A stretch of DNA of 64,000 nucleotides, taken from the NCBI GenBank assembly GCA_964400745.1, contig CAYNVY010000002.1, positions 5,195-69,194 of the forward strand, written 5' to 3'. A model generated the notes under the pieces. That model made no database searches. It was not told the origin of the DNA and was given only the letters and a program-made list of their open reading frames with translations. Positions 20,295 to 54,219 of the stretch are shown one piece after another. Position numbers and translations under genes: made by a program. Numbering within the stretch: position 1 is the stretch's first letter; each line of letters begins with the position of its first letter. The stretch is from an uncultured Enterobacteriaceae bacterium (GTDB taxonomy: Bacteria > Pseudomonadota > Gammaproteobacteria > Burkholderiales > SG8-39).

Positions 20295-21353
<1,059 letters not shown>

Positions 21354-32164: not shown

Positions 32165-33955
32165 TCAGGAAAAAGTCAACGCCTTGAGAAGCGTACGAAA
32201 AGGGTCATCCGAGGCGCGCGCATAGCGCGCACAAAAAGCCGTTCGCGCCGCTTGCACCTCCTTGCGCGACCACCAGGCTCCAACATCGTCCCAGATGTCA
32301 TTCACGTGCCGGGCCGCCGCCTCCGGGTTGCCGAAGAAGATGCCGGCCTCGGCGAGCATTTGGTACAACGGTATGGCATCGTCCCGCAATTCCCAATTGT
32401 CTGGGTTCCAGAAAACGACTGTAGGAATATTTTCAGTCAGAGTCTCCAGAAAGACGGTGCTATTGTAAGTGGCCACGACCAGCCTGCTGCGCGCGATTCT
32501 ATGCTCGATAGGTGCAACGCTAGGGTCAATTTCCACGCGCGGGAACGCCGCGCGCCATTGAGGAATGAACGCCGAGCGCAGCTTGTCGTCAGTCCGCTTG
32601 TGGATCCGCAACACCAGCTTCTCCCTGGCCGATTCGTCTAGCGCCCTGGCAAAGCGCAATTGATCCTGCAAAAAAGCCTGCGACTGGTTGGCCGCGGTGG
32701 CCCAACTGTTGCACTTGAAACTCACCATTCTGATGGAAACGGTCACCAGCAGCATGCCTCCATCCGGCTTCCATATCCGTTTCCTGCTTCCCGGGCTTTT
32801 CAATGCGAACAGAGGATAGGTGCTCGGCCGCGAATCCTGCCAACCCCAGGTCAGAAAGCGGTCGGCAACCGCGACCTGATGATCTTCACCCGCGACTACC
32901 CGGCCTGCGCCATAAAAGCCACCGTGCTGCCCGATGACCAGCGGCACGCCGTCCTCGGTTCGCGCCGCCGCCCAGCACTGAAATACTTCGTCGAACTGGA
33001 ACGAGTTCGAGGTAAAGATCACTTTGGGCCGGGAAGGCCAGGGCAATCTCTTTACCGCCTTCAGCAGCGCTGGATAACCCTCCAGATACACCGTTGGAAT
33101 CTGGCGCGTCACCATCTTCGCCACGAATCGCCGGAATTCGTCGCCTGAATCTGCCCTTGGCGGCAATCGTAATGCTCTTCTCGACTCCAGGTCAGGCGGA
33201 ACCTGCGGCGGTGGCGGCGATCGCCAGGATTTTGGAATTCCTCCCAACGCAAGCTGCAGGCGAGCTTCCATGAGCTTCGGCAAATAGGAGGCAATGAAGA
33301 ACGCCTCGTCGGGTCGCACCATCTGTTCCAGCAAGGAGCGGACACCACGGCGCAGCAATTGCCCGAAACCCCGCTTTGGATCGGCAGTAGCGCTGTCCTG
33401 CATTAGTCCGCGCCGCTCGCCCGGTATTTCATCCCACGGAACGCGACCCTGTTCGCGAATGGCGCAGGCATACAAGAAATGGTTCCATCGCAAATCGTCC
33501 GGACTCATGCCGCGCAGATCCCGCGGTATCAGCTCGTCCTCGGGGTCGGCAAGCAGGAGCGTCCCCGCTACGTCATTCCTCTCGGCCGCAAGCGCGACCA
33601 TGGTCCACCGGTCGAACAGCACATGGATAAACAAATAGAGCCAAGGTCCCACAAGAATTCGCCAGTAGCGCACATCATGATCGGTGCCGTGGCGGGAGTT
33701 GAGCATCTGCGCAAGTCCGGTCAGAGCCTCCTCGTAGCATGACTGTAGATACAGATAGTCGGCATGGAGCTTTTCACGGTCGTCCCAGTGATAGGGCATC
33801 ACCTCCGCATCGAGCGTCTCCCACGCCGACCGCTCATCGGGCAGGCGGCACCAGTTTCCAAGAAAAAGCAGCGGCTCGTCTGCGCGCCAGGAGCGTTGCT
33901 CGGAGGTGGTGACAAGTAGACGCTTGCTTACGGTCGCGCCTCTTGCTATCTGCAT
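32165..33955 (-). CDS. Putative transferase, LIC12162-like family (candidate nonulosonic acid transferase)
   Basis: LVTT...LFLGNWC, PYHWDDR, YWRILVGPW, GQHGG, TWGW, TYNSTVFLE. Family recalled from nonulosonate loci, not searched. Confidence 0.7.
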   Translation of the reverse strand: MQIARGATVSKRLLVTTSEQRSWRADEPLLFLGNWCRLPDERSAWETLDAEVMPYHWDDREKLHADYLYLQSCYEEALTGLAQMLNSRHGTDHDVRYWRILVGPWLYLFIHVLFDRWTMVALAAERNDVAGTLLLADPEDELIPRDLRGMSPDDLRWNHFLYACAIREQGRVPWDEIPGERRGLMQDSATADPKRGFGQLLRRGVRSLLEQMVRPDEAFFIASYLPKLMEARLQLALGGIPKSWRSPPPPQVPPDLESRRALRLPPRADSGDEFRRFVAKMVTRQIPTVYLEGYPALLKAVKRLPWPSRPKVIFTSNSFQFDEVFQCWAAARTEDGVPLVIGQHGGFYGAGRVVAGEDHQVAVADRFLTWGWQDSRPSTYPLFALKSPGSRKRIWKPDGGMLLVTVSIRMVSFKCNSWATAANQSQAFLQDQLRFARALDESAREKLVLRIHKRTDDKLRSAFIPQWRAAFPRVEIDPSVAPIEHRIARSRLVVATYNSTVFLETLTENIPTVVFWNPDNWELRDDAIPLYQMLAEAGIFFGNPEAAARHVNDIWDDVGAWWSRKEVQAARTAFCARYARASDDPFRTLLKALTFS

Positions 33956-33965
33956 GTCATGCGAA

Positions 33966-35123
33966 TCAGGAACGCTGCATGAGTTTGGTCTTGAGTCCAA
34001 GCAACTCTTCGTCGCTCAATATGGCCGAATGGATCAGGTGCGCCTTCACCAGCGTGAACAGCAGGCTCAGATCATCGTCCGAAAGGATAAGATCGAGCTC
34101 CGCGAGCCGCATCGCCAGACCCTTGCGGCCGGAATGACGGGTTATGGGAAAACGCCGCGCGGGCGCGCCAACCAACTCCGGCCGGATGATCTCGTACATG
34201 CTGGAAGCCTTGAACATTCCGTCCTGGTGAAGTCCGGCGCCATGCGCAAACGCGTTGCCGCCTACGATAGCCTTGTTGGGTGGAAGCGGGAAGCCCGTCA
34301 CCTCGGACACCAGCATGCTGGTAGCGTAAAGGCGGGTGGTGTCCAAGCGATTGCGGAATGGAAACCGGTCCGGGCGGGACACCATGGCCATGACCACTTC
34401 CTCCAGCGCGGCGTTGCCGGCCCGCTCGCCCAAGCCATTGATGGTGCAGTGCGCTTGACGTGCACCGGCCTCGAGTCCGGTAAGAGTATTGATGGTCGCC
34501 AAACCGAGGTCGTCATGGCAATGAATCCCGAGCACGACGCCGGCCAATTCCGGTACCTCACGCTGCAGTGTTTCAAGGTAGTGGCGAATGTCGGCCGGAG
34601 TGGCGTACCCGACCGTATCGGCCACCGTGACTGCGCATGCGCCGGCCTCGATAGCGAGACGGATCACTTCGCATAAAAAAGGCAGATCCGCCCTGGATGC
34701 GTCCTCCGTGATCACTTCGACTTCTGCGCACAGGTTTCGGGCTTCAATCACGCTCGAAGCGAGCATGGCCAGAGCCTGGTCGGAGTCCATCTCGAGCTTA
34801 TAGCGTACATGCAGGTCGCTTACCGGCATTACCAAAGTCATGCGCGGATGTTCAGCCGATCGCAACGCCACCCCCGCCGCAGCGATGTCGTCCGATTTGG
34901 TCCGGGCAAAGGCCGCGACCCTTACGCCTCGACACTCGCGGGCGATGTCCGCCGACGCGCGCGCATCGTCCGGCGAAGCCGCGGGAAAGCCGGCCTCGAT
35001 AGTATCAACGCCGAGTTCCTGCAAAGCCTTGGCGATCACCAGCTTCTGCTGCGGGAGCATGGCCGCTCCGGGCGCTTGCTCGCCATCGCGCAGCGTGGTG
35101 TCGTATATTTGGATATCGATCAT
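33966..35123 (-). CDS. 2-isopropylmalate/homocitrate/citramalate synthase-like enzyme (DRE-TIM), short form without regulatory domain
   Basis: YDTTLRDGEQ, EAGFP, HCHDDLG, GLGERAGNA, HQDG. 385 aa; start at the ATGA overlap. Confidence 0.9.
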   Translation of the reverse strand: MIDIQIYDTTLRDGEQAPGAAMLPQQKLVIAKALQELGVDTIEAGFPAASPDDARASADIARECRGVRVAAFARTKSDDIAAAGVALRSAEHPRMTLVMPVSDLHVRYKLEMDSDQALAMLASSVIEARNLCAEVEVITEDASRADLPFLCEVIRLAIEAGACAVTVADTVGYATPADIRHYLETLQREVPELAGVVLGIHCHDDLGLATINTLTGLEAGARQAHCTINGLGERAGNAALEEVVMAMVSRPDRFPFRNRLDTTRLYATSMLVSEVTGFPLPPNKAIVGGNAFAHGAGLHQDGMFKASSMYEIIRPELVGAPARRFPITRHSGRKGLAMRLAELDLILSDDDLSLLFTLVKAHLIHSAILSDEELLGLKTKLMQRS

Positions 35124-36175
35124 GGCAGCTCCGGGTTCCGCACCATGACAATCGCGCGGGGGACCATGCCCACTTCGATGTCCCGTTGCGGCGCCTGCAG
35201 TGGATAGACCTGCCCCAATGTTTCGGCAATCGCCGCTGCCACGACCGGAAAGCCGGCCGCATGCGCCGCAACCACGCTGCCGCTGGGGCGCGGATTCACC
35301 TCGAGTATGCAGGGGCGGCCCTGACCGTCCGTCATCAAATCGATATCGTGGAGCCCATCCAGCCCAATAGCCTCCGCGATGTCCAGGCAATATTTCATGA
35401 TCGCCGGGTCCGACATGATGCGATTGCCCGTAAATGGAATGCCCGTGGGATTGGTGCGCCGGCGTACCAGAGCCGCCTTCGCGCGGCCGCGTATGGCGAA
35501 CACGTCGACGTCGTGCACTGGCGCGTGCAGCAGGGGCATCACCATCAGTACCCCGTCGGCGAACCATGTTTGCATTTCTTCGGCGTCGGGAGTGTCTTCA
35601 ACACGCTTTTCCCGAGCGCCGCCGCCAATCCATGCCGCCGGGACTTCGCCCGTGCCCACCAAAAGGCGCATGCCGCGGCCACCGCGCCCCGCCACCGGCT
35701 TCACGATGACGCTGTGGCGGGGGTAGCCGTATCCGGCCATGGAGGTCTGAAGCTCGTCCAGGCTATCGACGCAGACATGCTCCGGAACCCGCAATCCCGC
35801 CGACTGAAGCGCGCGATAGGTTGCCTGTTTGTCGCGAATCATATCGAGCACTGCGATCGGGCTGGCCAGCACAATAGCGCCGGCAGCAGAAATTGCCGCC
35901 CGATCGGCGGAGAGGCGAAAAGCTTCCTCGTCGGAACTCGGCAGCACAAGATCGATCTTCTCATGCGCAACGATGCGCGCGACCTCATCTACATAGGCAG
36001 GATCCCCGCCCCATGGAACCTGATAGAAGGCATCCACATAGCCACGACCTGCTGCATTGCCGGACGCGTCCACGCCCACAAGGTACGGCCGAAGTATCGG
36101 ATCGCTACGCAGATGAGTAAGCAGGTCCGGCACCATTGTGCCTCCGACGCAGGTGAAAAGTATCCGAGCGTTCAT
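35120..36175 (-). CDS. ATP-grasp ligase (PylC/CarB-like)
   Basis: LPSSDEE, RDKQAT, IVKPVAGRGGRG, LEVNPRPSG. Confidence 0.88.
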   Translation of the reverse strand: MNARILFTCVGGTMVPDLLTHLRSDPILRPYLVGVDASGNAAGRGYVDAFYQVPWGGDPAYVDEVARIVAHEKIDLVLPSSDEEAFRLSADRAAISAAGAIVLASPIAVLDMIRDKQATYRALQSAGLRVPEHVCVDSLDELQTSMAGYGYPRHSVIVKPVAGRGGRGMRLLVGTGEVPAAWIGGGAREKRVEDTPDAEEMQTWFADGVLMVMPLLHAPVHDVDVFAIRGRAKAALVRRRTNPTGIPFTGNRIMSDPAIMKYCLDIAEAIGLDGLHDIDLMTDGQGRPCILEVNPRPSGSVVAAHAAGFPVVAAAIAETLGQVYPLQAPQRDIEVGMVPRAIVMVRNPELP

Positions 36176-37236
36176 GTCATGCCTGCAACGTGGTCCGCAC
36201 GAATAGGCTGGTCGCGGGAGATTGCTTTCAAGGCAGTGTTGCCAAGTACTGCCCCGTATGAAGAAGGCGGGAGACCGAGTTCACCCGGCAGCGGGCGCTT
36301 GAGAGCCACGTTCCCCTCAGAAAACGCCTCTCCTGCCGCAATGTCGCAACGCGCGATGAGACAGCGGTGCCGCTGATCACGCACCGCCTCTTCCGCAGGC
36401 GCCGGCGCGATGCGCCCGTCGCCGAGCATAACCTGCAGGCGTCGTATCTTTCCCACCATGCTCGCAAAATCGGCTGGCTCCATGGAGATGTGGTGATCCG
36501 CACCGGCAAGACTCTTGTCCAGCGTGAAGTGCTTTTCGATGACCGTCGCGCCCAATGCCACTGCTGAGAGGCAGGCGAGATCGTCCAGCGTGTGGTCCGA
36601 GTAGCCGACTGCCACGCCGAACCGGCAACCCAGCGCGGACATGCCGGCAAGATTGACCGTATCGTCGGGCGCCGGGTAAAGCGCAGTGCACTTGAGGACC
36701 GCCAGGCCCGGGGATCCGTTGCAGCGCGCGGTGTCGATCGCCGCCGCGATCTCTTCTTCATACGCCAGACCGGTGGAAATAATCAGCGGCAATCCCTTTC
36801 GCGCCGCGGCAGCGACAAGCGGCAGGTTGGTCATCAAGCCGGAGGACACCTTCACCGCGGGCATCCCCAGGCGGCTCATGCGGTCCAGGCTGACAAAGTC
36901 TCCAGGAGTAGAAAACAGGATAATGTCCAGACGCTTGGCCAAGTCCATCATATCGTGCATGGCGGCGTCATCGAGAGACTTGTCGCGAAATTCGGCATGA
37001 GACACGGTCCCCGCCACGTAGCTTTCCTCAGCGTCCACGGTCTGCAGCTTGACCGCATCGGCTCCGGCCGCGGCGGCAGCTTCTATCATGCGTGCGCACA
37101 GGGCGGCGTCGCCGTGATGATTGACTCCCACCTCGGCGATCACGAATACGGGATGTCCGGGACCGATGCGGCGGTTGCCAATGCCAAAGCTGAGGTTTCC
37201 TGCCGATTTCAGCATATTCTGCGGATCTTCGTTCAT
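36172..37236 (-). CDS. NeuB-family nonulosonic acid synthase (PseI/LegI-like) with SAF domain
   Basis: IAEVGVNHHG, ADAVKLQ, STPGD, GYSDHT, IEKHFTLD, DHHISMEP. Confidence 0.92.
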   Translation of the reverse strand: MNEDPQNMLKSAGNLSFGIGNRRIGPGHPVFVIAEVGVNHHGDAALCARMIEAAAAAGADAVKLQTVDAEESYVAGTVSHAEFRDKSLDDAAMHDMMDLAKRLDIILFSTPGDFVSLDRMSRLGMPAVKVSSGLMTNLPLVAAAARKGLPLIISTGLAYEEEIAAAIDTARCNGSPGLAVLKCTALYPAPDDTVNLAGMSALGCRFGVAVGYSDHTLDDLACLSAVALGATVIEKHFTLDKSLAGADHHISMEPADFASMVGKIRRLQVMLGDGRIAPAPAEEAVRDQRHRCLIARCDIAAGEAFSEGNVALKRPLPGELGLPPSSYGAVLGNTALKAISRDQPIRADHVAGMT

Positions 37237-37280
37237 CTAAGCCCTTATATATTGGATACTATCGGTGCATCTCTCATCGT

Positions 37281-37955
37281 TCACATTATAATCCGGCCGA
37301 GTTCAAACGCTTCCGCCGCGGCAACGCCGACCATGGCGCCACGCCAGCGTGCCAGATGCTCCACGGCTTCGATGGAACGCGGATGCGGAAAAGCGCGCAT
37401 CTCGTCCGCATATATCGATAGCGCCGCCAGTTTTCTCGGCAAGTAGTCCGACACATCGACAAACCAATTCGGCGCAAACGGCGCCATTGACGCGGGCGGG
37501 CGCCACTCGGTACTGGAGGCCGTTTCAAAAAACAGCAGCTGGCGCACCGAGCAACCTGGTTGAGGACGGCACGCCGCTACAACCGCATCGTGAACCCGGC
37601 GATGGTCGATGTTTACGTCATGCCCGTGGTGGGTGTAGACGATGTCCGGCCGGGACCTTTGTACCGCGCGTTCGATGTCCTGGACAGTGTCGAGAAGCGG
37701 GATCGTATCCAGTCGGTTGTCCGGATATGCCATCAACGTCACGTCGATCACCCCCAGTTCGGCGCACGCGCGTCGCGCAGCATCGTGGCGAGCAGCGAGT
37801 TCCCGCTCGCGGTCCGCGGGTTTGCGTGAGCATATCCCATCTGCCAGGAATATGACGGCCGCGCTGCCCCCCTCGGCGCAATGGCGCGCCAGTGTTGCGC
37901 CGCAGCCGAGCACTTCGTCATCGGGATGTGCGGCAACCACCAATACCCTGCTCAT
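37281..37955 (-). CDS. PIG-L/LmbE-family N-deacetylase
   Basis: AAHPDDEVLG, DVNIDH, FETASSTEW, FPHPRS. Confidence 0.92.
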   Translation of the reverse strand: MSRVLVVAAHPDDEVLGCGATLARHCAEGGSAAVIFLADGICSRKPADRERELAARHDAARRACAELGVIDVTLMAYPDNRLDTIPLLDTVQDIERAVQRSRPDIVYTHHGHDVNIDHRRVHDAVVAACRPQPGCSVRQLLFFETASSTEWRPPASMAPFAPNWFVDVSDYLPRKLAALSIYADEMRAFPHPRSIEAVEHLARWRGAMVGVAAAEAFELGRIIM

Positions 37956-38105: not shown

Positions 38106-39266
38106 TCACCGGATCGTCGGCTCGTTCGAACCGCTGCGCTTCGCCCTTGGTTCGGGAATGCGCGACCTTGTAGCAGACCCAGGCGCGGACAACATCGCCG
38201 CACAAACGCGGCTCGCACCGCGCCCGTCAACCGCGGCGAGACAGCGCATCGACCACGCTTTGTCCAGGCCTTCGCACAAAATCTTTCCAATGCCTTCCGC
38301 CAATCCATGATCGTCCACTTCATTGCTATGTCCAAGCCATCGAACCAGGCCATGTCGTCCAAGTTCATCAGCGATCGGTCGCTGATTTTCGGACAGAGTT
38401 ACCACCAAGGCAGGCAGCCCCAAGCATAGACGCTCCCAACTCGTCGCCCCGCCAGCGCCCACCGCCAGATCGGCTTTTTCCATCAGTGGCGCAAGACTGG
38501 GAAGGTCGCAATGCAGATGAATGTTGTTGTGTCCATCAATCAGATTGCCGACTCCCCGAATATGCCGATTGGTCTTGCTCATGACTATGTCGACATCGAT
38601 TTCCGGGCGATTGAGCCGCAACAGCGCGGCTAACACGCGCGTGGTCAGGTTGGCCCTGTCCACACCTCCGAAAAATACCAGGATGCGCCGAATCGGGCCA
38701 CTTCGCGGCACAATGTGTCCGCGCATTTGCGCATACAAAGGCTGCAGCAATGCGTATTTTGGCCCCAATAGCAACGTACAGCCCCCGGGGATCTTACTTG
38801 CATAGCGGGTATGCATTAGCGCCACCAGGTTCTGGTCAAGCAGCAGATCGCACTCATGCGTTCGGTCGGCGAGATCGTCGATCACCATAACTTGCCCGAC
38901 CGCGTGGCACAATTTCTGCTCCCAACGGATATCGAGGGCATAGTGGTCGACTACCAGCCAATCGGGTTCAACGTTCATCGCCCGAATTGCCGCGAGGGTC
39001 TGCTCTGCGTCCTCCTGCCATGAAGCTCTCAGCCATCGGGCGTGCGCGGGCGTTTCGCCGGCTTCTACCGGCACATCAATTTCGGGCAGACGGTTGACGG
39101 CAAACCCTCTTGCCTCAATCAGGTCGCACAGATCGCCGTCATGCTCGCGACAGACAAAGCGCGCCTCCACGCCGCGCTCGCGCAATGCAGCGGCCAGCGT
39201 CAGGCAGCGCATGACGTGCCCGGTCCCAATATGGGATGCCGCGTCCGTGCGTATGACCGCCAGCAC
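38106..39266 (-). CDS. pseG: UDP-2,4-diacetamido-2,4,6-trideoxy-beta-L-altropyranose hydrolase
   Basis: RTDAASHIGTGHVMRCLTLA, VVDHY, IDDLADR, GATSWERLCLGLP, ENQ. Confidence 0.92.
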   Translation of the reverse strand: MLAVIRTDAASHIGTGHVMRCLTLAAALRERGVEARFVCREHDGDLCDLIEARGFAVNRLPEIDVPVEAGETPAHARWLRASWQEDAEQTLAAIRAMNVEPDWLVVDHYALDIRWEQKLCHAVGQVMVIDDLADRTHECDLLLDQNLVALMHTRYASKIPGGCTLLLGPKYALLQPLYAQMRGHIVPRSGPIRRILVFFGGVDRANLTTRVLAALLRLNRPEIDVDIVMSKTNRHIRGVGNLIDGHNNIHLHCDLPSLAPLMEKADLAVGAGGATSWERLCLGLPALVVTLSENQRPIADELGRHGLVRWLGHSNEVDDHGLAEGIGKILCEGLDKAWSMRCLAAVDGRGASRVCAAMLSAPGSATRSRIPEPRAKRSGSNEPTIR

Positions 39267-39269
39267 GAA

Positions 39270-40559
39270 TCAGCGGACCTTGAACAGGGGAACGAGCGGC
39301 TCGCACTGGAGCAGGTCCCGAATTTTGCCGTCTGCAAGAGCGCGGGCGATCAACGGAAATACCTCCCGGTAGCATGCGAGCAATTTCGTTACGTCCTCCT
39401 CGCTATGGGCATAGCTGAGGTTATGTGTGCCCAGCGTATATATGCCCCGGCGGAAGACCTCCTGTATGAACAGCGTCTTGATCTCCCAGTTGGAAAAGGG
39501 GGCTTTCTCGCGAAACTGGAGGAATGACCAGGTCGGGTGACCGCTCAGTCCGATCACGTCCTCGAGCCTATTGTCCTCAATTATGCGGGCAACCCCTTCC
39601 AGAATCTGCTTGCCTCGGGTTCGCAGCGTCTCGATGACCGGCTCACCGCGCAACTTGGTAAGCACGGCTTTGGCCGCGGCAAGGGACAAGGTTTCCCCGC
39701 CGAAAGTGCCGGAGAAGAAAATCTGCTCGACTACGTTCATGTATTCCGATTTGCCTACCAATGCCGACAGGGGATATCCGTTGGCCATGCCTTTCCCGAA
39801 CGTGGCAAGGTCCGGGGTGACACCGAATTCCTGCTGCGCACCGCCGATGGCGTAGCGAAAGCCGGTTATGGTCTCGTCGAACACCAATAACGCGCCGTGC
39901 CCGCGTGCGAGGTCCTGAACCTTCTGCAGGAAGTCATCCTTCGGATACGCTGAATTCATCGGCTCCAATATCACTGCCGCAAACTCGCCGGGATGCGCTT
40001 CGAGCACGCTTTGCAGGGACAGGATGTCGTTGTAAGTGAAACTGTGCGTGAGTTCCTTCACGGCCTTGGGTACGCCGAGATCGCGCGCCGTGCTGCCAAT
40101 ATACCAATCCTGCCATCCGTGGTAACCGCATACCGCGACGCGGTCCCTGCCCGTGCAGGCCCGGGCAACCCGTATCGCCCCGGAGGTCGCATCCGTGCCG
40201 TTTTTGGCGAAGCGGACCTTCTCCGCGCAAGGTATCATCTCGACCAGCAGTTCCGCCACCTCCGTCTCCAGCCGGTGCGGCAGCGAAAATGTTACGCCGC
40301 ATTCCATCTGCTTTCGTACGGCCGCGTCCACGTCCGGATCGCAATAGCCCAGGGTGACGCACGCCAGGCCGTTGACAAAATCGAGATATTCATTGCCATC
40401 CACGTCCCACATGCGGCTGCCCTTTGCACGCTCGACGAAGTAGGGCGACACCCCGAACGGCAGCGCGGTCTTGCTCTTGCTGAAAGTCTGCGAGCCGAGC
40501 GGAATCGATTTGAGGGCTCGCTCGAGAAGTGCTTCAGATTTACTGTAACGTTCGGACAT
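39270..40559 (-). CDS. Class III aminotransferase (GSA-aminomutase-like, glycan-locus type)
   Basis: PLGSQTFSKS, DVDGNEYLD, GYHGWQDW, FDETITGFR, TFGKGMANG. Confidence 0.9.
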   Translation of the reverse strand: MSERYSKSEALLERALKSIPLGSQTFSKSKTALPFGVSPYFVERAKGSRMWDVDGNEYLDFVNGLACVTLGYCDPDVDAAVRKQMECGVTFSLPHRLETEVAELLVEMIPCAEKVRFAKNGTDATSGAIRVARACTGRDRVAVCGYHGWQDWYIGSTARDLGVPKAVKELTHSFTYNDILSLQSVLEAHPGEFAAVILEPMNSAYPKDDFLQKVQDLARGHGALLVFDETITGFRYAIGGAQQEFGVTPDLATFGKGMANGYPLSALVGKSEYMNVVEQIFFSGTFGGETLSLAAAKAVLTKLRGEPVIETLRTRGKQILEGVARIIEDNRLEDVIGLSGHPTWSFLQFREKAPFSNWEIKTLFIQEVFRRGIYTLGTHNLSYAHSEEDVTKLLACYREVFPLIARALADGKIRDLLQCEPLVPLFKVR

Positions 40560-41338
40560 TATTTTTTCTCCGCAAGGAATGCAGCATCTGCAAGTAGGGA
40601 CTTCCTGGTGCCCTCGTTGCGCTGAAAGCGCGCATTGAATTGTTTCAACTCGGGTGATTCCCGCAACAATGCCAGCACATCATCTGTCGTGAAATCCGGC
40701 TTGCCCGGATACAATCGTTCGTAAACCAGACGCACGAACTCGAAATCCTCCGGCTCGTCCACTGTCCAGCGCAGGGACGAGAGGTCCTCGCTGCGAACAT
40801 GATTGCCGACACGAAACCGGTCTGGCTGCTTGCGAATGAACGGCGTAACGTGTTCGCGCTGCGATGGCAGAATTGCCTCGGTCCAGGCCGACTTCAGGCA
40901 GGCGAACCGGGTAACCTCGACATCGAGCCCGTCCGGGTAGGTGGGCGGAGCGCAATTGGACAGGTAGTCGAGGTCCGAGGCCAAAAACCTGCCCACAATC
41001 TCGTCGATCAGTGACGGATCCGCCAATGGACAGTCTCCGGTCAGCCGGACTACGACATCCGGCGCGTAGGGCAATGCCGCCTGGAAAAAGCGGTCCAGGA
41101 CATCGTTCAGGCTGCCGCGAAAGCAATCCACTCCGGCATCGCGACATAGGTCAAACAGAGCGTCGTCGGAGGGATCGATGCTGGTAGCCACGACTAGGCG
41201 TTCAAGGCTGGTGCATCTCGCCAATCGCTCAAGCTGATACTCCAGCATGGGACGCCCGAGGATCGGCATCATCACTTTTCCCGGCAGTCGCGACGATGAC
41301 GTGCGGGCCTGCAGTATGGCTAGTACCCCCATGGTCAT
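40559..41338 (-). CDS. SpsF-like cytidylyltransferase (CMP-ulosonate synthetase fold)
   Basis: ILQARTSSSRLPGKV, GSLNDVLDRF, RLTGDCP, REHVT, RWTVDEPED. Confidence 0.88.
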   Translation of the reverse strand: MTMGVLAILQARTSSSRLPGKVMMPILGRPMLEYQLERLARCTSLERLVVATSIDPSDDALFDLCRDAGVDCFRGSLNDVLDRFFQAALPYAPDVVVRLTGDCPLADPSLIDEIVGRFLASDLDYLSNCAPPTYPDGLDVEVTRFACLKSAWTEAILPSQREHVTPFIRKQPDRFRVGNHVRSEDLSSLRWTVDEPEDFEFVRLVYERLYPGKPDFTTDDVLALLRESPELKQFNARFQRNEGTRKSLLADAAFLAEKK

Positions 41339-41922
41339 TTGGCACCCTCCTGCTGCGACGCATCATTGGCAATGCCGTTTCGCCGCATCCAATCTTCGCG
41401 CCGCAGCATCGCGATGACATTGTCGACATAGCGACCCCGGTCCCAAATCAATCCTTCCAGGCGTCCCACCTCCTTGAACCGGAACATATCATGGATAGTC
41501 TTGGAAGCGTCGTTGCTGGCTGCAAATGTGCTCTTGATGATGCGCATGTTGAGCCTCAAAAAGGCCACACGAAGGAGCAACGACACCGCCTCGACAACGT
41601 GTGGCCCCTTGCGATATTCCTTGTCGCCGATGACGATGGCGAGGTCGCAATAGCGATGCACCCAGCTGATCGCACTCAGATTGCACACGCCTATGTGCTT
41701 GTCCGTCGCCACGTCGACAATGGATAGAACCATCCGGTCCCTGTCCCTCTTGCACGATTCATAGAACTCCAGTTGCCCTTCTACGCTGTTGGGCCAATAA
41801 CGTTGCGCTAGCCAACGGCTGGTTTCCTCATCGCTCAGCCACTCGTGCCAAGGCCCCTCCGCATCCGCCCTGGTGGGATGACGCAGGTACACATTGGTGC
41901 CGATCATGTACGGGTTGATCAT
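41335..41922 (-). CDS. RimJ/RimL-type GNAT N-acyltransferase (PseH-like)
   Basis: KHIGVCNL, IVIGDKEYRKG, AFLRLNMR, FKEVGRL. Overlaps the ACP gene by ATGA. Confidence 0.8.
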   Translation of the reverse strand: MINPYMIGTNVYLRHPTRADAEGPWHEWLSDEETSRWLAQRYWPNSVEGQLEFYESCKRDRDRMVLSIVDVATDKHIGVCNLSAISWVHRYCDLAIVIGDKEYRKGPHVVEAVSLLLRVAFLRLNMRIIKSTFAASNDASKTIHDMFRFKEVGRLEGLIWDRGRYVDNVIAMLRREDWMRRNGIANDASQQEGAK

Positions 41923-42155
41923 GCCTTACCTCGGCGTTTGGCTTCGATTCGGGCCATGAGCCCACGCACGTCCTTGATCGATACGATATCTTCGTCGTTG
42001 AATTCGACTCCGAGCGACTCCTCTACCGCCAGAATCAGTTTCATGTGGCGCAGGGAGTCCCATTTCGCCAGAGTAGCCGGGGTTGACTCTTCGCTCACCG
42101 ATTCAACCGGTACGCCCATGATGCTCGCAACAATCTCAAACACATTCTTGCTCAT
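41919..42155 (-). CDS. Acyl carrier protein
   Basis: 78 aa, acidic, WDSLRHM phosphopantetheine-Ser motif, GGAGAG RBS. Confidence 0.92.
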   Translation of the reverse strand: MSKNVFEIVASIMGVPVESVSEESTPATLAKWDSLRHMKLILAVEESLGVEFNDEDIVSIKDVRGLMARIEAKRRGKA

Positions 42156-42380
42156 TCAATTCTCTCCATGTATTTCACCTTCTAATCCCGCTTGCCGCGC
42201 AGGATCGGCAGCGCGAGATCGGAAGACTGCAGGGTAGGCTCACGACTAACAAACGACTCGCAGAATCGGAGGCTCGAATGCAGGTGCTGGTGACAATTGC
42301 CAAGTCCCGCAACGACCGACGAAGTACGGTGCCAGCGACAACAAGGACCCCTGACAATTTAGCACTGCCGCAGAGTAAGC

Positions 42381-43064
42381 TTAGGACTCCTCTGGCTTGT
42401 AAATTTTGAGCAAATACTTCTTGCCATCAACGAAAAAGAAAGATGGCCAATGCTCATTATTTCCGATGCGCAACATATTGAACTGCTCGCGGATTGTTTT
42501 GTCGATATTTAGCTCCCCGTCCTTTGGCGTCCGCCTCCAATAGAAACTTTCGACGCCGGACTGCCTAGTTCTCGTAAAGTTCGGAAAGCAGTCCAAAAAC
42601 TCGGATATTGCGGCAAACGTAGCCTCGACTTGGGCCGCGCGTATTTCGTCATAAAGTTCATATCCCGAGAGAGTAAAAGAGGACTTGAATAGAATGTCAC
42701 CGGAGTCGACTTGCTCACCGGCCTCCAATAAGCAGATTGGAATCTCCTTCTTCCCCTCCAGTATCTGCCACTGTACCGGCGCGAAACCCTTTCCCAGTGG
42801 CAGATCGCTCTCGTGTATTACGACGTTCAGGTGATTCCTGCTCAAGAAGCTCTTGTCAAGAATTCTTGTGTAGCCAAGTATGAAGACAATATCCTGATTG
42901 GAAACCGCGGAATAATCGTGGGAAATTGTAAAGCGGAATGTCTGGTCGCTGACAAATGCCTTTGACTGCAGTAAGTGACCCTCAATCCAGTTGTTTGCTC
43001 GATCGAGAAGGAACGTCACCAGATAGGGCGTTGCGCGCGGCGTACGGGAGAAGTTGCTTGGCAT
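42381..43064 (-). CDS. Formyltransferase-family protein
   Basis: VVIHESDLPLGKGFAP, VDSGDI, FNMLRI. Start at the ATG at 43064. Confidence 0.82.
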   Translation of the reverse strand: MPSNFSRTPRATPYLVTFLLDRANNWIEGHLLQSKAFVSDQTFRFTISHDYSAVSNQDIVFILGYTRILDKSFLSRNHLNVVIHESDLPLGKGFAPVQWQILEGKKEIPICLLEAGEQVDSGDILFKSSFTLSGYELYDEIRAAQVEATFAAISEFLDCFPNFTRTRQSGVESFYWRRTPKDGELNIDKTIREQFNMLRIGNNEHWPSFFFVDGKKYLLKIYKPEES

Positions 43065-43150
43065 GGTTTCTGATGTGGGTGTTTCGGTTTGGCGGACTGC
43101 GCACTTCAAGCGGGCCGAAATGCACGCTATAAGCTTTTCCGGGAACCCTC

Positions 43151-43909
43151 TTACTGTCCGCGAGGCGTCAATACCTCGACCGTCAATAGCCGCTTTACGC
43201 CCTCGCGCCCGGTCAACTCCATGAGACGCGAACATAGAACGGCGATCGACTGCGGCAGCCACCCTGACAGTCGTGGGTGGGGAATATCGTGAATTTTGAA
43301 AAACAGACCCGGGCACAGCCGCTTTACGTCCTCCAGGATGGCGGAAAGGGATTGTGGATTATTCCAGGCCTGGTAAATCACGATAAGGCCGGCTTCATTC
43401 AACTGGTCAGCGAAATACCGGATAAACGACGCCTGTGCCGGCGCGTCCGCGTTCCTGGTAAACGGGTAGAACTCAAAGCAGAATATCAGATCGAACCGGC
43501 CAAGGGGCCCGGCATCTGGAGATATCGCCTCCGCCTTGAATTCCGCGGCCGGATATCTGGCGCTGGCGTACGCTACCGCGTCAGCTGAAATGTCTATCCC
43601 GAGCACCTTGGCGTCCTTGAAGCATTGCGCCAGTGCAACGGTCGTAAATCCAAGCCCGCATCCCGCGTCCAGGATGTTTCCTGCCTTGTTCAGTCCGAGA
43701 TTCAGTCCAAGAGATCGAACGATCGTCTGCACCTTGCGCAGGGGCTGCACGTCATTGTGGTTGGCGATCATCGTACGTTCTGGATCGTCACCCAGGAGCA
43801 TGCGCCGGTAGGAACCGAAATCGCTCTTTGGATCGAGTGCGGTAACTTCGTTTATCGAACGAATCTTTTCTTCGTCTTCCTTAAGCTGCTTCGGATGCCA
43901 CCATTCCAT
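43151..43909 (-). CDS. Class I SAM-dependent methyltransferase
   Basis: ILDAGCGLG, GIDIS, FDLIFC. Confidence 0.82.
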   Translation of the reverse strand: MEWWHPKQLKEDEEKIRSINEVTALDPKSDFGSYRRMLLGDDPERTMIANHNDVQPLRKVQTIVRSLGLNLGLNKAGNILDAGCGLGFTTVALAQCFKDAKVLGIDISADAVAYASARYPAAEFKAEAISPDAGPLGRFDLIFCFEFYPFTRNADAPAQASFIRYFADQLNEAGLIVIYQAWNNPQSLSAILEDVKRLCPGLFFKIHDIPHPRLSGWLPQSIAVLCSRLMELTGREGVKRLLTVEVLTPRGQ

Positions 43910-43989
43910 TGCGAATCCCTGTAATTTGCGCAGTCGATGCTTTGTGCCAGAGCTGCGGCGCCCGGCCGCGATAGCCAGTCAGGTTCGAG

Positions 43990-45786
43990 TCAATCGTCTA
44001 GCGGAGAACGCACTTCGGCAAATCCCCCCCCACCCGGGGCCGGCACCTGTTTTAGATCCAGCACAAACCAATCGCCTTCCCCCGCCTTGCGAGGTGTTGG
44101 CACGAACCCCTGGCCTGCATAGAACTCCTCCACCTGGCTATTCTTGGCCGTGGGAATGTACTGACCCAGTATGCGCTGAGTTCCACGCCGGCGGGCCAAA
44201 TGCATCGCTTCGGCAAGAAACCGGCCTTCTATGCCCCGCCCCAAGGCACGGCACGAAAGCAGCAGCGTATCGACGACCGCCTCGTCGCCCTGGTAGCGAA
44301 TCACGCAAGTCCCGACGATACCCATGTCGCCGAACTTGTCAGCCACCCTCAGCCAAAGGACTTCGTGGTCCGGCGATTCTGAGAAGCTTCGAATGTCGGC
44401 GTCCGAATAGCGCCGCGACGTGAGATTGAACTGGTTGGTCTTCTGGGTCTGCTGCGCTATGCGCGGTATGCTCATCGCATCGGCGCGGCCGATGTGCAGC
44501 TTCATCTCCAGTGAGCGGCAATAGCTCTCAAGATCCGAACACTTGGCCCGCTCGCGCTGGCGCCCGCTTTCGGCCTGATACAACGCGCCGCGCTTTCGAT
44601 CCTCATCCGTAATGCGCGGGAGATCGAAAGCGCCGCAGGCCGCCAATATCCAGCGATAGTCGGACGGGCGCGCAGGGGGCAGTTGCAGCACCTGAACCTC
44701 CGGCACCATGCTCCGGGCGAGATCGGCCTCGAAGGGGCTGTCGTCCGCGAAGACAAGGCTGTCGATGCCGATATTCAATTCCGCGGCGATGTCGCGCAGA
44801 TTGCCCGCTTTGTCCCGCCAATTGATGCGCCAGGCCGCTATGTGCTCCGGCTTGAGCACCATGTCCGGGTGCCGCTCGAACACTTCCATCACGTCCGCCT
44901 CGTTGTTCTTGCTGCATATGGCCAGGATGACTCCGCGGCGATGCAAGGACAAGACCTCGCGCTGGAACTCGACAAACGCGGAACCGGGATGGCCGCTTCC
45001 GAGCTTGATCCCTTCCAGCCCGTCCTCGCCCACAATGCCGCCCCAAAGCGTATTGTCGCAATCAAGCACGAGACATTTACGCGCCCTTCCCTTCAAGGCC
45101 CGCAGGTACTTGAAATCTTCCCTGGCGATTTCTGCCAGGGCCAGGCGCGAGTAGGGCGACCGGGCGAGCTGCCAATAACGCAAATCGTAGAACTGGCGCG
45201 CCCCAATGCGGGCCAGGCATGTCTCCATGCTCACCAGATAGGCGTTATCAACAGAGGACAGGGCCAGCCGCAGCCCCTCGTTCAACCTGGCCACCACAGC
45301 CAATTGCCCGCATGCCAGTTGTGCGTCCTGAATCCCCATTGCGGGATACAGCGGCGCCTCCAGGCCGTGCCAGAGGATCATGGCATTGGACTGTTTCCGA
45401 ATGCCGCGGACTACGGTCCCGAACAAGGCGACCAGCCTGGCCACTTCCTCCTCCACCTGCGCCGGGGAAAGGGCGGAAAAGCCGGTATCCAACAAGGTGC
45501 TCAGGGCCGGAAGCGGCGCAAACACGAGTGCTGCGTCCAGATCGCGGTGCAGCAACTCCGGCGCCCCGCCCAATGCCTCCTGCACGAGGTTATCGAATCC
45601 GCCGAAGGCGACATCCGCACGAAACCCAAGCTCATAGGCCATGTACTGGAGATAGCCCTGGATCGATTCCATCGTTACGTTGCGCAGTACGGCCAGGCGC
45701 ATGCGCGGGAGATCGCCGATCTCCGGCGCGGACAGACGATCCTCAATTTCGGCCAGTGTCGGCAGCGGCGGTTCGATGTAGAGCAT
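43990..45786 (-). CDS. FkbH-like glyceryl-ACP synthase (HAD-IIIC)
   Basis: KCLVLDCDNTLWGG, SKNNE, FADDSPFE, KTNQFNLT, LLSCRALGR. Confidence 0.93.
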   Translation of the reverse strand: MLYIEPPLPTLAEIEDRLSAPEIGDLPRMRLAVLRNVTMESIQGYLQYMAYELGFRADVAFGGFDNLVQEALGGAPELLHRDLDAALVFAPLPALSTLLDTGFSALSPAQVEEEVARLVALFGTVVRGIRKQSNAMILWHGLEAPLYPAMGIQDAQLACGQLAVVARLNEGLRLALSSVDNAYLVSMETCLARIGARQFYDLRYWQLARSPYSRLALAEIAREDFKYLRALKGRARKCLVLDCDNTLWGGIVGEDGLEGIKLGSGHPGSAFVEFQREVLSLHRRGVILAICSKNNEADVMEVFERHPDMVLKPEHIAAWRINWRDKAGNLRDIAAELNIGIDSLVFADDSPFEADLARSMVPEVQVLQLPPARPSDYRWILAACGAFDLPRITDEDRKRGALYQAESGRQRERAKCSDLESYCRSLEMKLHIGRADAMSIPRIAQQTQKTNQFNLTSRRYSDADIRSFSESPDHEVLWLRVADKFGDMGIVGTCVIRYQGDEAVVDTLLLSCRALGRGIEGRFLAEAMHLARRRGTQRILGQYIPTAKNSQVEEFYAGQGFVPTPRKAGEGDWFVLDLKQVPAPGGGGFAEVRSPLDD

Positions 45787-45837
45787 ATTAGGGAATGGTC
45801 GGTCAGAAAGTTGGATAGGGGAACGCTTGTTCGAAAT

Positions 45838-47295
45838 CTACCCGGCCTGGACTGCTGCGAATCCGTTGAGCAGATTCAGCATGACCGGAAGCGAGTCCTG
45901 GTTGCGAACCGGCAGCAGGCTCGCGGTCTGGTCGGTCGCGAGCCTCGGCAAGCGCGGATTGGCAATCCGTAGGCCGGGATTGCGCCGGACCAGAGCGTGG
46001 CAGAGCACTTCGCCGGCCGCCTTGGCGGCACAATATTCGATCATATCGGATGGCAGTTCGTCTAAGGCCACCGTCGACGGACAAAACGCGCCTTCGAGCC
46101 CCACGGAACTCAAGTGTTCCACCAATTGCGCGAAGCCGCTGACATAGTAATCGCAGAAGCGGTCGAACAATTCGGCAGAGAACCGGGAGCGCGTCCCGAC
46201 AAAAATTGGGGGCGTCGCAAAATAGTACAAGTGGGTCGGCCACCACCCGTCGGGAAGCGCGCTTTCAGGGACAAGCGGCGCACGAACATCCAGTGCGACC
46301 GCGCGCGCCTTGCCGCCGTGTGAAAGAATTTCGGCAACCACTGCCTCGGCTTCGCTGCGCCCCCGGTGATAGGTGAGGCAGACGTCCGCCCCACCGGCGG
46401 CCAACACCTTCGCCGTGAGTTCCCCCAAGCCCCTTGAACCGCCCACCACCAACGCGCGCTGAGTGCAAAACGCAGTCCGCGAGACGACTCGTGTTGCCAA
46501 TTCCTGCATCGACGCCTGCCGGGTTGGCGGCGGACGCAGGAAAGCACGCACGGTCCCGGAAAGACCCGCGCCCTCCACCCCCACCGTGAGGAGGCCGAAG
46601 CGACGATCGAAGCGAAGGACGCGATAGCTCACGCGGCTCGGCGCTTCGCCCGTCCGGTGCGGTATTTGCGCCAGTTCAAGCTCGGAATACAGCGAATACA
46701 GACCGGGACATTCCATGCCGACGAGCCGGCTGGTGTTTGCAAGCAGAATCGGCAAGCCTTCGCCGCACAGGTCGACGAGCGCTGGAAAAAGCCGTGCTGC
46801 ATGGCCGGTTTCGACCGGCATCACCCATCCGCCCGACCTGCCCTCCAATTCGTCCATCCCGAGTTCGATCGGCGTAGCGGAAGCAGGCGTGCCGGCCACG
46901 GCAGGCAAAGCGCGGACGGGCGCATCGTTTCCTGGCACAAATTCGACCAGCATTGCATCCCCTCCCGGAACCGTGACCTCTAGCCGAACCTTGCCGGATG
47001 CGTCAACGCCACGATCGCGACAGATCGCTGGCTCCCCAATCAAGATTGGGCGCGTGAACTCGACATGCAGGCTTGCGACGCTGCTGGCGCCGCCGCGCTT
47101 TCCGGCCCAGCATTCCAGCGCCCAGAGAAGGGTGTGAACGCCGTGCACGACCAGTTCGCCGGCAGGACAGCGACGGGCGTGCAGCGGATCGACGTGCAGG
47201 GGATTGCGGTCGCCGGAAAAGTCGGCGAATGCCAATTGATCTTCCAGCGAGAACATACGCTCGCCTAGAATCGGCAGCATTGCTTCAGGTGCCAT
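45838..47295 (-). CDS. MaoC-type dehydratase fused to an SDR ketoreductase
   Basis: FADFSGDRNPLHVD and VVHGVH (hot-dog fold), then ALVVGGSRGLG and YCAAK. Confidence 0.88.
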   Translation of the reverse strand: MAPEAMLPILGERMFSLEDQLAFADFSGDRNPLHVDPLHARRCPAGELVVHGVHTLLWALECWAGKRGGASSVASLHVEFTRPILIGEPAICRDRGVDASGKVRLEVTVPGGDAMLVEFVPGNDAPVRALPAVAGTPASATPIELGMDELEGRSGGWVMPVETGHAARLFPALVDLCGEGLPILLANTSRLVGMECPGLYSLYSELELAQIPHRTGEAPSRVSYRVLRFDRRFGLLTVGVEGAGLSGTVRAFLRPPPTRQASMQELATRVVSRTAFCTQRALVVGGSRGLGELTAKVLAAGGADVCLTYHRGRSEAEAVVAEILSHGGKARAVALDVRAPLVPESALPDGWWPTHLYYFATPPIFVGTRSRFSAELFDRFCDYYVSGFAQLVEHLSSVGLEGAFCPSTVALDELPSDMIEYCAAKAAGEVLCHALVRRNPGLRIANPRLPRLATDQTASLLPVRNQDSLPVMLNLLNGFAAVQAG

Positions 47296-47304
47296 CTGCG
47301 CGCT

Positions 47305-48210
47305 TCATTTTTTCCATCGGGCGGGATTGACATACACCTCGTCGTCGACTGCAAACTGCCGCAGACGCTCCATGGCGCCAGGCGGCAAGGGCGAATCCGC
47401 GGTGGCGAGGATTTCCTCCCACTGGCGCACCTGTTCGCAACCTACGATGATCCTATCGGCGTCGGCGCAATGCAGACTGAACCCGAGCGCAGCCTGCAGA
47501 GGCGGTACGCCCAATTCCTGGTATGCAGTCCAAAGGCGCGCATGGTGGGCGCGCAATGCGCGGAAATGCTCAGGGAGGCGCTCCGGAGGCATGAGCAGCA
47601 CCCCCTGCAGGAATGCGCTGCGCAAATGCACTTCGACCCCCCGCGACTTGGCGACGCAGGACAGCCCGCTTGTGACGTAGCGCTGGTCGTATATGTTGTA
47701 GGGAACCTGGACCAGATCGAGTTGATACCGAGCCAGCAATTCGGCAAACTCTGCCGGCCGGTAGAGGGAACACCCGATCTTCTCAACCATGCCTTCCGCG
47801 CGCAACTCCTGGAGGCGCTTCCACAACGCGTTGCCGGCAGGCCCCAGCAGATCATCCGCATGATGCACCAGAAGGCCATATACCGCCGTACCGCCAAGCG
47901 TCGACAGCGAAGCGCGAAACGCCTCTTCCACCAGGTCCGCGGACTCGGCGGGGGTTTTGTCCGTGCCCTTGAGCGGTCGGGTCTTAGTCACCACCTTGAA
48001 CCCGGCGGCAACGGCGCGGTGCTCGCCGAGCGCGCGTTCCGCGTCACCGTACGCCCATGCGGTATCCAGCGTTGTCACGCCGGATTCCCGCGCCCTTTTC
48101 AGTATGGCTGACACGTCCGCCGCCGGCGCGACGCCGCTTTGATTTGCGATCCCGTAGCTCATGCCCCACTGGACCGTGCCCAGCCCCAGGCGCTGCGCGG
48201 CGCTCAGCAC
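47305..48210 (-). CDS. Aldo/keto reductase
   Basis: LGLGTVQWG, DTAWAYG, VVTK, LLVH, RSAFLQG. Confidence 0.9.
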   Translation of the reverse strand: MLSAAQRLGLGTVQWGMSYGIANQSGVAPAADVSAILKRARESGVTTLDTAWAYGDAERALGEHRAVAAGFKVVTKTRPLKGTDKTPAESADLVEEAFRASLSTLGGTAVYGLLVHHADDLLGPAGNALWKRLQELRAEGMVEKIGCSLYRPAEFAELLARYQLDLVQVPYNIYDQRYVTSGLSCVAKSRGVEVHLRSAFLQGVLLMPPERLPEHFRALRAHHARLWTAYQELGVPPLQAALGFSLHCADADRIIVGCEQVRQWEEILATADSPLPPGAMERLRQFAVDDEVYVNPARWKK

Positions 48211-49352
48211 CCGAGAGCCCGCGAAAGCACGGACACCACGTAGTCCTGGTCGTCGCCGGACAGCCGCGGGTGCAAGGGAAGGGTGATGGCTTGGTTACCG
48301 TGGCGCTCCGCTTCTGGAAAACTCCCCTCCACGCGGCCGGGGAGACGGTAATAGGGCTGCAGATGAACCGGCGTGTAATGCACGTTGACCAGGATGTCTT
48401 CGGCGCGCATCGCTTCGAACACGGCCCGCCGGTTCTCCTCGACGTGGACGACATACAGATGCCAAGCCGAGACATTGCCATTGGCCAATTGCGGCCTCCT
48501 TATCGGCAATGCTGCCAGAAGCGCGTCATAGCGCCGCGCCAGTTCCTGACGGCGCGCCAAGTAGCCGTCGAGACGCTGCAACTGGCTCAGGCCCAGGGCG
48601 GCGTGGATGTCCGACAATCGATAGTTGAATCCAAGCATTTGCTGCTCGTAGTACCACTGCGGCGCCGAAACGCCCTGATGGAGCAGCTTCGGGTCGCGGG
48701 TGATGCCATGAGCCCGCAGCATCAGCATGCGCTGGGCCAGCATGGCATCGTTGGTCAGGGCCATGCCGCCCTCGGCCGTGGTGATGATCTTTACCGGATG
48801 AAAGCTGAAAACGGTGATGTCCGACCAGCGGCAGCTGCCGACGGGCTCGCCATTTCTTGACGCGCCGATGGCGTGCGAGGCGTCTTCCAGGACCTTGAAG
48901 CCGAATTCCCGGGCAAGATCCCATATCGCTTCCTGGTCGGTGGGCTGGCCGGCAAAATGCACCGGCACCAGGACCTTGGGCAGGCTGTGTTCCCGTCGGG
49001 CGCGAACCAGTTTTTCCTTCAGGCAAGGCACGCTCAAATTCATGCTTGCCGGATCGATATCGACAAAGTCCACATCCGCGCCGCAATAGCGGCCGCAATT
49101 GGCCGACGCCACGAACGTATTGGGTACGGTCCAAAGGCGGTCGCCGGGCCCCAAGTCCAGCGCCAGGCAGGCGATGTGCAGCGCCGAGGTTGCGCTGTTG
49201 ACCGCCACCGCATGATGCGCGCCCACACGCGCGCGCACGGCCTGTTCGAATTCACCAATCGTGGGCCCTTGCGTAAGATTTTCCGAACACAGCACCTTTA
49301 CCACTGCGTCGATATCGCTCTGGGTGATGTCCTGCCGGCCGTAAGGGATCAT
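48204..49352 (-). CDS. pseC: UDP-4-amino-4,6-dideoxy-N-acetyl-beta-L-altrosamine transaminase
   Basis: MIPYGRQ, LTQGP, NSATSALH, EDASHAIG, FSFHPVKIITTAEGG, WYYEQQMLGFNYR. Confidence 0.95.
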   Translation of the reverse strand: MIPYGRQDITQSDIDAVVKVLCSENLTQGPTIGEFEQAVRARVGAHHAVAVNSATSALHIACLALDLGPGDRLWTVPNTFVASANCGRYCGADVDFVDIDPASMNLSVPCLKEKLVRARREHSLPKVLVPVHFAGQPTDQEAIWDLAREFGFKVLEDASHAIGASRNGEPVGSCRWSDITVFSFHPVKIITTAEGGMALTNDAMLAQRMLMLRAHGITRDPKLLHQGVSAPQWYYEQQMLGFNYRLSDIHAALGLSQLQRLDGYLARRQELARRYDALLAALPIRRPQLANGNVSAWHLYVVHVEENRRAVFEAMRAEDILVNVHYTPVHLQPYYRLPGRVEGSFPEAERHGNQAITLPLHPRLSGDDQDYVVSVLSRALGC

Positions 49353-49476
49353 CGAATACCTTCTGGGTGTTTTGGAGCGGCGGTTTGCAAACATGTCAGG
49401 CGGTCGGATCGACTGCGCGTGCGAAATTCAACGCCGTGGACGGCAGTGCAACGCGCCATCCAGGCAAGAAGCGGTT

Positions 49477-51500: not shown

Positions 51501-51530
51501 TGCGTATTGCCTCGATTTGACGGGCTTGTC

Positions 51531-52286: not shown

Positions 52287-52381
52287 GTTCGATGTCGGTA
52301 CTTTTTCGATCAATGACTCGGGTCAAACACAGGTGCTGGCATGCCAGCGTGATGCACGCTGCTGATTGCTCATCCCCGCCC

Positions 52382-54207: not shown

Positions 54208-54219
54208 CGGGAGGCACCC

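Follow-up and report, generated by a model that had tools for sequence, protein, structure and literature searches.

Amino sugars with N-malyl or N-2-hydroxyglutaryl groups and an 8-amino nonulosonic acid occur in O-polysaccharides (PMC3210612), and an ATP-grasp gene of C. difficile is required for a peptidylamido sugar (PMC5207246). In the nonulosonate synthase NeuB, three acids have been proposed as catalytic, among them Glu134, a position otherwise occupied by E or D (PMC8208679), and Phe112 lines the active site (PMC6795526). A kinetic study argues that active-site residues of this enzyme class serve mostly in binding (PMC12531865), so that loss of Glu134 need not abolish activity. Here we describe a locus in a 64,000-nucleotide stretch of contig CAYNVY010000002.1 (assembly GCA_964400745.1, positions 5,195 to 69,194; the window from here on), where a divergent nonulosonate synthase lacking both residues, termed NeuB*, is encoded together with a predicted ATP-grasp ligase, a short LeuA-derived DRE-TIM synthase and a PIG-L family de-N-acetylase. 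With about even confidence, we favour a pathway of the pseudaminic acid (Pse) type, in which the ligase would attach a 2-hydroxy-diacid (an alkylmalate in this locus) by an amide bond to an amine that has been freed.

NeuB* and the genes that travel with it

Five intact reading frames on the minus strand form the core of the locus: the PIG-L de-N-acetylase (37281-37955), NeuB* (36172-37236), the ATP-grasp protein (35120-36175), the DRE-TIM synthase of 385 amino acids (33966-35123) and a LIC12162-family protein (32165-33955; TIGR04331, 467 bits for a cut-off of 225) that is a candidate ulosonyl transferase. The ATP-grasp gene overlaps both NeuB* and the DRE-TIM gene by ATGA, while gaps of 44 and 10 nucleotides separate PIG-L from NeuB* and DRE-TIM from the transferase gene. 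A previous reading of this DNA, made from the sequence only, had described this arrangement, and the coordinates of the open reading frames bear it out. The order NeuB-ATP-grasp-DRE-TIM-LIC12162 is repeated in two other loci, L155 and G001, which are near-identical to each other, and its recurrence is beyond chance. GC content at third codon positions is 0.68-0.73 for the four genes from PIG-L to DRE-TIM and 0.88 for the housekeeping leuA, as expected of a transferred glycan locus.

NeuB* has the NeuB and SAF domains (Pfam) and the phosphoenolpyruvate (PEP) and metal ligands of a NeuB-family ulosonate synthase, with K53, Q55, T110, K129, S132, S154, S213, H215, E234, H236, D247 and R314 all retained. 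In an alignment with N. meningitidis NeuB (1XUU), Phe112 is replaced by Gly and Glu134 by Leu, and the beta2-alpha2 loop is short; the changes at active-site positions had escaped the sequence-only reading. Of the 120 closest relatives, 119 have Leu134 and 111 have Gly112; in 42 control NeuB sequences position 134 is E (33), D (8) or S (1). The protein misses the equivalog cut-offs for PseI, LegI and NeuB (TIGR03586, 252 of 340 bits; TIGR03569, 294 of 400) and belongs to a clade of its own (support 0.997) that branches near PseI-type controls. A separate observation concerns Arg289 in the NeuB linker, which adjoins the Phe288 N-acyl pocket, is found in 117 of 120 close relatives (P0002-P0058 and relatives) and varies in distant NeuB* proteins; it might bind an acyl carboxylate.

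The ATP-grasp protein was assigned to its superfamily by its fold, the ATP-binding lysines and an E-x-N-P-R motif (EVNPR). It resembles PRK12767 and PylC, misses the PRK12767 equivalog cut-off (best score 106 of 218 bits) and has the uncharacterised structure 2PN1 as its nearest solved fold. It is predicted to be a carboxylate-amine ligase, for which PylC is presumably a suitable analogue. The PIG-L protein (Pfam, 101 bits) carries both metal motifs of its family, HPDDE (as AHPDDE) and H-x-D-H (as NIDH).

Loci encoding NeuB* were collected by a profile search of 401 genomes from another class of the same phylum, with smaller follow-up searches, and their neighbourhoods were analyzed over about 10 kb per side or up to the contig end. 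Eleven loci were obtained, the window included, and 42 ordinary NeuB loci were used as controls; G1117, which lacks an acid at position 134 but falls outside the NeuB* clade and has no ligase, was left out of the eleven. A member of the ATP-grasp family was present in all 11 NeuB* loci (168-554 bits) and in none of the controls at 150 bits or more (one 52-bit match). PIG-L was found in 8/11 loci and 2/42 controls; the three loci without it all end at contig ends, and in G001 no PIG-L was found elsewhere in the assembly. In G001 the place that PIG-L takes in the window, immediately 5' of NeuB*, is occupied by insertion-sequence-like DNA (L250:3194-4972). A class III aminotransferase similar to glutamate-1-semialdehyde (GSA) aminomutase accompanied NeuB* in seven loci, compared with four control matches that all stayed under 350 bits, and in G698, G1207, G997 and G1597 it was fused to the cytidylyltransferase SpsF, itself present in 8/11. 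Formyltransferases appeared in two loci, and the DRE-TIM synthase in four of the eleven and none of the controls; no DRE-TIM protein of the window's clade was found in G698, G1207, G1009, G997 or G1096. No further NeuB* turned up in 200 family-mates of G001, 32 order-mates of G929 or 230 genomes of the same class.

The sequence-only reading had suggested the four genes as a possible cassette for exchanging an N-acetyl group, and had proposed a search for its co-occurrence. That search left the ATP-grasp gene as the constant partner of NeuB* and the DRE-TIM gene as an optional one, with PIG-L non-adjacent in G001 and L155. The four genes are not a fixed cassette; the idea of de-acetylation and re-acylation gains from the frequencies of ATP-grasp, PIG-L and formyltransferase genes given above; in place of PIG-L, the GSA-like aminotransferase could be the source of the acceptor amine. 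In G929 a full-length LeuA (S to G at 138, P to A at 168), which belongs to another branch of the tree, is encoded directly 3' of NeuB*, and a yeast-type leuA is retained elsewhere in the genome; G929 recruited this spare LeuA independently. In G1597 a D-2-hydroxyacid dehydrogenase gene lies directly 3' of the ligase gene. Both kinds of enzyme found in this variable slot yield 2-hydroxy acids from 2-oxo acids.

Two additional features of these loci were recorded. In distant loci (L257:1215-3050, L300:12827-14665, L304:6030-7844, L297:12253-14208, L352:2516-4357) the gene that immediately precedes NeuB* encodes a protein of 600-650 amino acids, without Pfam or NCBIfam match where tested, which is a candidate dedicated glycosyltransferase. 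PhyH-family dioxygenases were found in three NeuB* loci (L305:5749-6675, L304:9555-10343, L351:17711-18502), and in one of these the dioxygenase gene separates the LeuA copy from the ligase.

A short, reshaped copy of LeuA

The DRE-TIM protein consists of the HMGL-like and HCS_D2 domains (Pfam) and has no LeuA_dimer regulatory domain. Fold matches and residues R12, D13, H201, H203, H299 and Y310 identify it as a Claisen-type synthase, and Q16, E140 and T170 are also retained, in agreement with the previous claim of an enzyme with intact catalytic motifs and no allosteric domain. That it might be the only leuA of the genome, a possibility raised at the same time, does not hold: a canonical leuA of 511 amino acids is located behind ilv genes on contig C182, and leuC and leuB on C91 (genome 88% complete). 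The reported absence of leuB and leuC from the window was confirmed, no homolog of either being found there. Since a normal leuA and leuBC are present elsewhere, the DRE-TIM gene is a spare copy.

When 8000 candidates were scored against this protein, the top 58 matches were short proteins with at least 407 bits, and ordinary LeuA reached 387 bits at most. These 58, with seven more distant short proteins and minus one fragment, form a clade of 64 members (FastTree support 0.95) in which catalytic and metal residues are conserved, Glu140 being substituted in 7/64. The 2-oxo-acid pocket, for which the E. coli numbering is our assumption, has been rebuilt and reads F72, T96, V98, P100, I138, T166, A168, G199 and G295 in the window; F72, P100, I138, A168 and G295 are invariant in the 64 proteins, none of which has His96, and nearly all of the other 55 matches carry L, A, S, P, E and H at those positions. 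The L/H/F/S/N/P pocket with which isopropylmalate synthase (IPMS) accommodates ketoisovalerate is replaced by F72, T96, V98, I138, T166 and A168. Although its best-scoring family models are those of IPMS, the protein is below every IPMS cut-off, LeuA2 included (NF042434, 200 for a cut-off of 500), and also below those of citramalate and homocitrate synthases (TIGR00977, 186 of 450 bits; TIGR02090, 342 of 485; TIGR02660, 299 of 463; TIGR02146, 258 of 414). Phe72 is shared with CimA-type matches. A structure model (predicted local distance difference test score, pLDDT, 90) has the methylthioalkylmalate (MAM) synthase 6E1J as its top neighbour, along with NmIPMS 3RMJ. At the four positions through which plant MAM synthases are retuned (PMC6603273, Table 2), mapped here by residue and spacing, H, N, P and S of IPMS are changed to T, T, A and G. 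On the basis of the pocket, the substrate is predicted to be other than ketoisovalerate, with pyruvate or a longer 2-oxo acid of an unbranched or polar kind among the possibilities.

A DRE-TIM protein 73% identical to that of the window is assigned to Rhodoferax saidenbachensis, which would be a cultured carrier. Other short LeuA-like proteins (P0064, P0069, P0080, P0113, P0076) have partly changed pockets and no link to ATP-grasp by contig matching. A degenerate HGxGxHQDG pattern was considered as a marker of the clade and discarded, as it is not clade-specific.

Because protein searches report no neighbours, co-location among relatives was deduced by pairing longest contigs of equal size between search results. 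Among 57 close DRE-TIM relatives, 26 paired with an ATP-grasp relative, 24 with a NeuB relative, 17 with both and 33 with either; no full-length LeuA paired with an ATP-grasp relative (0/42), and the four of 20 other short matches that did all have the rebuilt pocket. Pairwise identities were correlated between DRE-TIM and ATP-grasp proteins (rho 0.73, 31 pairs) and between DRE-TIM and NeuB proteins (rho 0.63, 24 pairs), values reached in 0 of 2000 permutations, which reflects shared descent and not function. Direct loci with a DRE-TIM gene of the clade beside ATP-grasp are those of the window, L155 and G001. Collection scans gave mostly ordinary LeuA among the matches listed, together with at least four loci of clade members, one of them with flanks. 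No ATP-grasp relative was found in viral contigs or plasmids, and phage records gave matches at the level of ordinary LeuA only. The ATP-grasp protein had no match in 400 genomes of the same order, which makes this a rare system, nor in 150 genus-mates of G001.

A proposed route and its alternatives

On its minus strand the window encodes the following proteins of a putative Pse-type pathway. PseC (48204-49394, TIGR03588) and PseG, a uridine diphosphate-sugar hydrolase (38106-39266, TIGR03590), are above their cut-offs. The PseB-like 4,6-dehydratase (20295-21302; Polysacc_synt_2, 51-60% identical to homologs at other NeuB* loci), the GNAT acyltransferase in a PseH-like position (41335-41922, domain match), the synthase and the SpsF-like cytidylyltransferase (40559-41338, family match) are present as relatives only. 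From established roles of these families, PseB, PseC, the GNAT protein and PseG would yield a diamino-trideoxyhexose, from which PIG-L would remove an N-acetyl group. The DRE-TIM enzyme, whose conserved catalytic residues suggest the reaction type, would condense acetyl-CoA with a 2-oxo acid other than ketoisovalerate to give a 2-alkylmalate, and the ATP-grasp enzyme would form the amide via an acyl phosphate. NeuB*, with its site opened, could then condense PEP with the bulkier sugar; acylation before this step would explain why NeuB* never occurs without the ligase. SpsF would provide the cytidine monophosphate (CMP)-activated product, to which a reductase and the aminotransferase (39270-40559; best model PRK06209, under cut-off; candidate C8 aminase) probably add an 8-amino group, and the LIC12162 protein would carry out the transfer. 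In loci without DRE-TIM, malate or 2-hydroxyglutarate may be the acid used.

Several observations weigh against this proposal. DRE-TIM is missing from seven of the 11 loci, which represent about eight lineages, three being cut by contig ends and one (G997) counted over two contigs, and the contig-size pairing is an indirect link. A bulky acyl group offers no obvious explanation for the loss of Glu134. The pocket substitutions of the DRE-TIM enzyme are mixed, F72 and I138 narrowing it and others widening it, so that no particular substrate follows. Looser associations also exist: PIG-L lies beside ordinary NeuB in the two controls mentioned, and distant ATP-grasp proteins (52-55 bits) do so in L396 and G1802, the latter combining an ordinary acid at 134 and a 55-bit match with PIG-L and a formyltransferase. 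G1117 has PIG-L, aminotransferase and formyltransferase and no ligase, the window has a formyltransferase of its own (42381-43064, family and domain match) that is a possible alternative partner of PIG-L, and pairing of a deacetylase with a formyltransferase is documented in the SugarBase preprint. The window also contains another potential acyl route, formed by FkbH (43990-45786, TIGR01686 above cut-off), a MaoC dehydratase-SDR fusion (45838-47295, domain match), an acyl carrier protein (ACP; 41919-42155, PP-binding) and the GNAT protein. By analogy, this set (41335-47295) suggests a glyceryl- or lactyl-ACP route to a second N-acyl group.

The same ligase chemistry could act on a different amine, which we regard as unlikely: the 8-amino group introduced by a reductase and the GSA-like aminotransferase would be acylated after NeuB*, while PIG-L would serve the formyltransferase or leave a free amine. 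KdnA and KdnB are presumably the relevant analogy. The frequency of the aminotransferase, often as an SpsF fusion directly after the ligase, and the gene content of G1117 fit this arrangement, as do the Kuenenia deacetylase/formyltransferase precedent (same preprint) and the 8-amino nonulosonic acid already known (PMC3210612). However, formyltransferases are confined to 2/11 loci, no aminotransferase was seen in G1096 (genome 71% complete), and acylation after NeuB* would leave the alteration of this enzyme unexplained.

At a slightly lower probability, the carbon skeleton itself would be changed. NeuB* would then make an unusual 2-oxo acid or take a substituted PEP, the final product being a branched ulosonic acid or one of the C10 type, and the DRE-TIM enzyme would add acetyl-CoA to a sugar-borne 2-oxo group, the ligase closing a lactam or amide on the resulting C-branch, or would supply 2-oxobutyrate via citramalate. 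With the same low probability, NeuB* would be no Pse synthase with a widened pocket but a new PEP-condensing enzyme without Glu134, obligately paired with ATP-grasp and with a carbon-branched, lactamised or C10 product, LeuA having been recruited at least twice for extending or feeding it. A residue listed as catalytic (PMC8208679) and present as E or D in 41 of the 42 controls is indeed lost, together with the change of Phe112 to Gly; both variable neighbours, DRE-TIM and the 2-hydroxyacid dehydrogenase, act on 2-oxo acids, and unexplained C10 CMP-ulosonic acids reported in Magnetospirillum (SugarBase preprint) could be analogous. Yet the cytidylyltransferase retained in 8/11 loci implies that the C2 keto group is intact, the window showed no isomerase or dehydrogenase that could elongate the chain, and DRE-TIM is optional.

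It is improbable that the ATP-grasp enzyme acts on the nonulosonic acid itself, by amidating its C1 carboxyl or closing an internal lactam, with the DRE-TIM product used elsewhere in the glycan, for instance in ester linkage or by way of ACP and GNAT. The strict pairing of ligase and NeuB* with an optional DRE-TIM, and the presence of ACP, FkbH and GNAT genes, would agree with it, but the DRE-TIM clade and the ATP-grasp family go together even in distant pairs, and the DRE-TIM gene is translationally coupled to that of the ligase. Finally, a feedback-free second IPMS like Leptospira LeuA2, merely located in the cluster, would be in line with the top-scoring models and with known short active IPMS enzymes (4OV4), but is very hard to reconcile with at least six pocket residues unlike IPMS in 64/64 members, the NF042434 score and the lack of any ATP-grasp link among short matches that keep the IPMS residues.

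The long polysaccharide locus around these genes also holds an ABC transporter and a second NeuB. A KidO-like aldo-keto reductase (47305-48210, family match) has homologs at the G698, G1009, G929 and G1597 loci. Genes for an adenosine 5'-phosphosulfate kinase, a methyltransferase and a sulfotransferase follow LIC12162 (28767-32057, minus strand), an order kept in L155 and G001. A second module (50667-59552, minus strand) may produce a higher ulosonic acid derived from a heptose. Its NeuB is fused to a xylose-isomerase-like TIM barrel, and the remaining genes encode GmhA, HddA and HddC, another cytidylyltransferase, a branched-chain aminotransferase, a further TIM barrel and two SDRs.

Comparison with known systems

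In the full-text literature, which leaves most subscription journals uncovered, we found no description of such a pathway, nor of nonulosonic acid loci that include an IPMS-like enzyme or this pairing of NeuB with ATP-grasp. The locus shares with the Pse pathway (PseB, C, H, G, I, F) its PseC and PseG and the relatives of other steps, and differs from it in a synthase that is under the PseI cut-off and has neither Phe112 nor an acid at position 134, and in the ligase, PIG-L and class III aminotransferase alongside. It defines a branch of nonulosonic acid biosynthesis that recurs but has not been annotated, with the absence of an acid at 134 and an ATP-grasp neighbour as its clear sequence signature.

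De-N-acetylation and re-acylation at the level of the nucleotide sugar, as proposed here, are features of the Kuenenia nonulosonic acid cluster (SugarBase preprint), where a formyl donor takes the place of the predicted ATP-dependent ligase of the window. In the C. difficile type B flagellin locus, the ATP-grasp gene CDR20291_0245 is beside CDR20291_0246, which forms a small acid, and is needed for an N-acylated amino sugar (PMC5207246); the sugar there is of the Qui3N type, NeuB is absent and the ATP-grasp protein is of another Pfam family. The groups proposed here resemble the hydroxy-diacid amides of O-polysaccharides and the 8-amino nonulosonic acid of Flexibacter maritimus (PMC3210612). 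In the passages covered on these O-polysaccharides, their genes carry no assignment and no alkylmalyl group, nor a diacid on a nonulosonic acid, was found; passages and four supplements of the T. maritimum O-antigen paper hold no ligase or synthase terms. The genes described here are candidates for the hydroxy-diacid amides and 8-amino groups of O-antigens, for which no enzymes were found in the literature.

With plant MAM synthases and the apple citramalate synthase (PMC6603273, PMC7826400), the DRE-TIM enzyme has in common its origin as a LeuA copy, the loss of the regulatory domain, changes at the same pocket positions and a presumed role in specialised metabolism. Unlike the plant MAM enzymes, it is bacterial, is encoded in a glycan locus without chain-elongation partners and has Ile instead of Gly or Ser at 138. 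It may be viewed as their bacterial counterpart, in which LeuA would have been repurposed twice for glycan tailoring.

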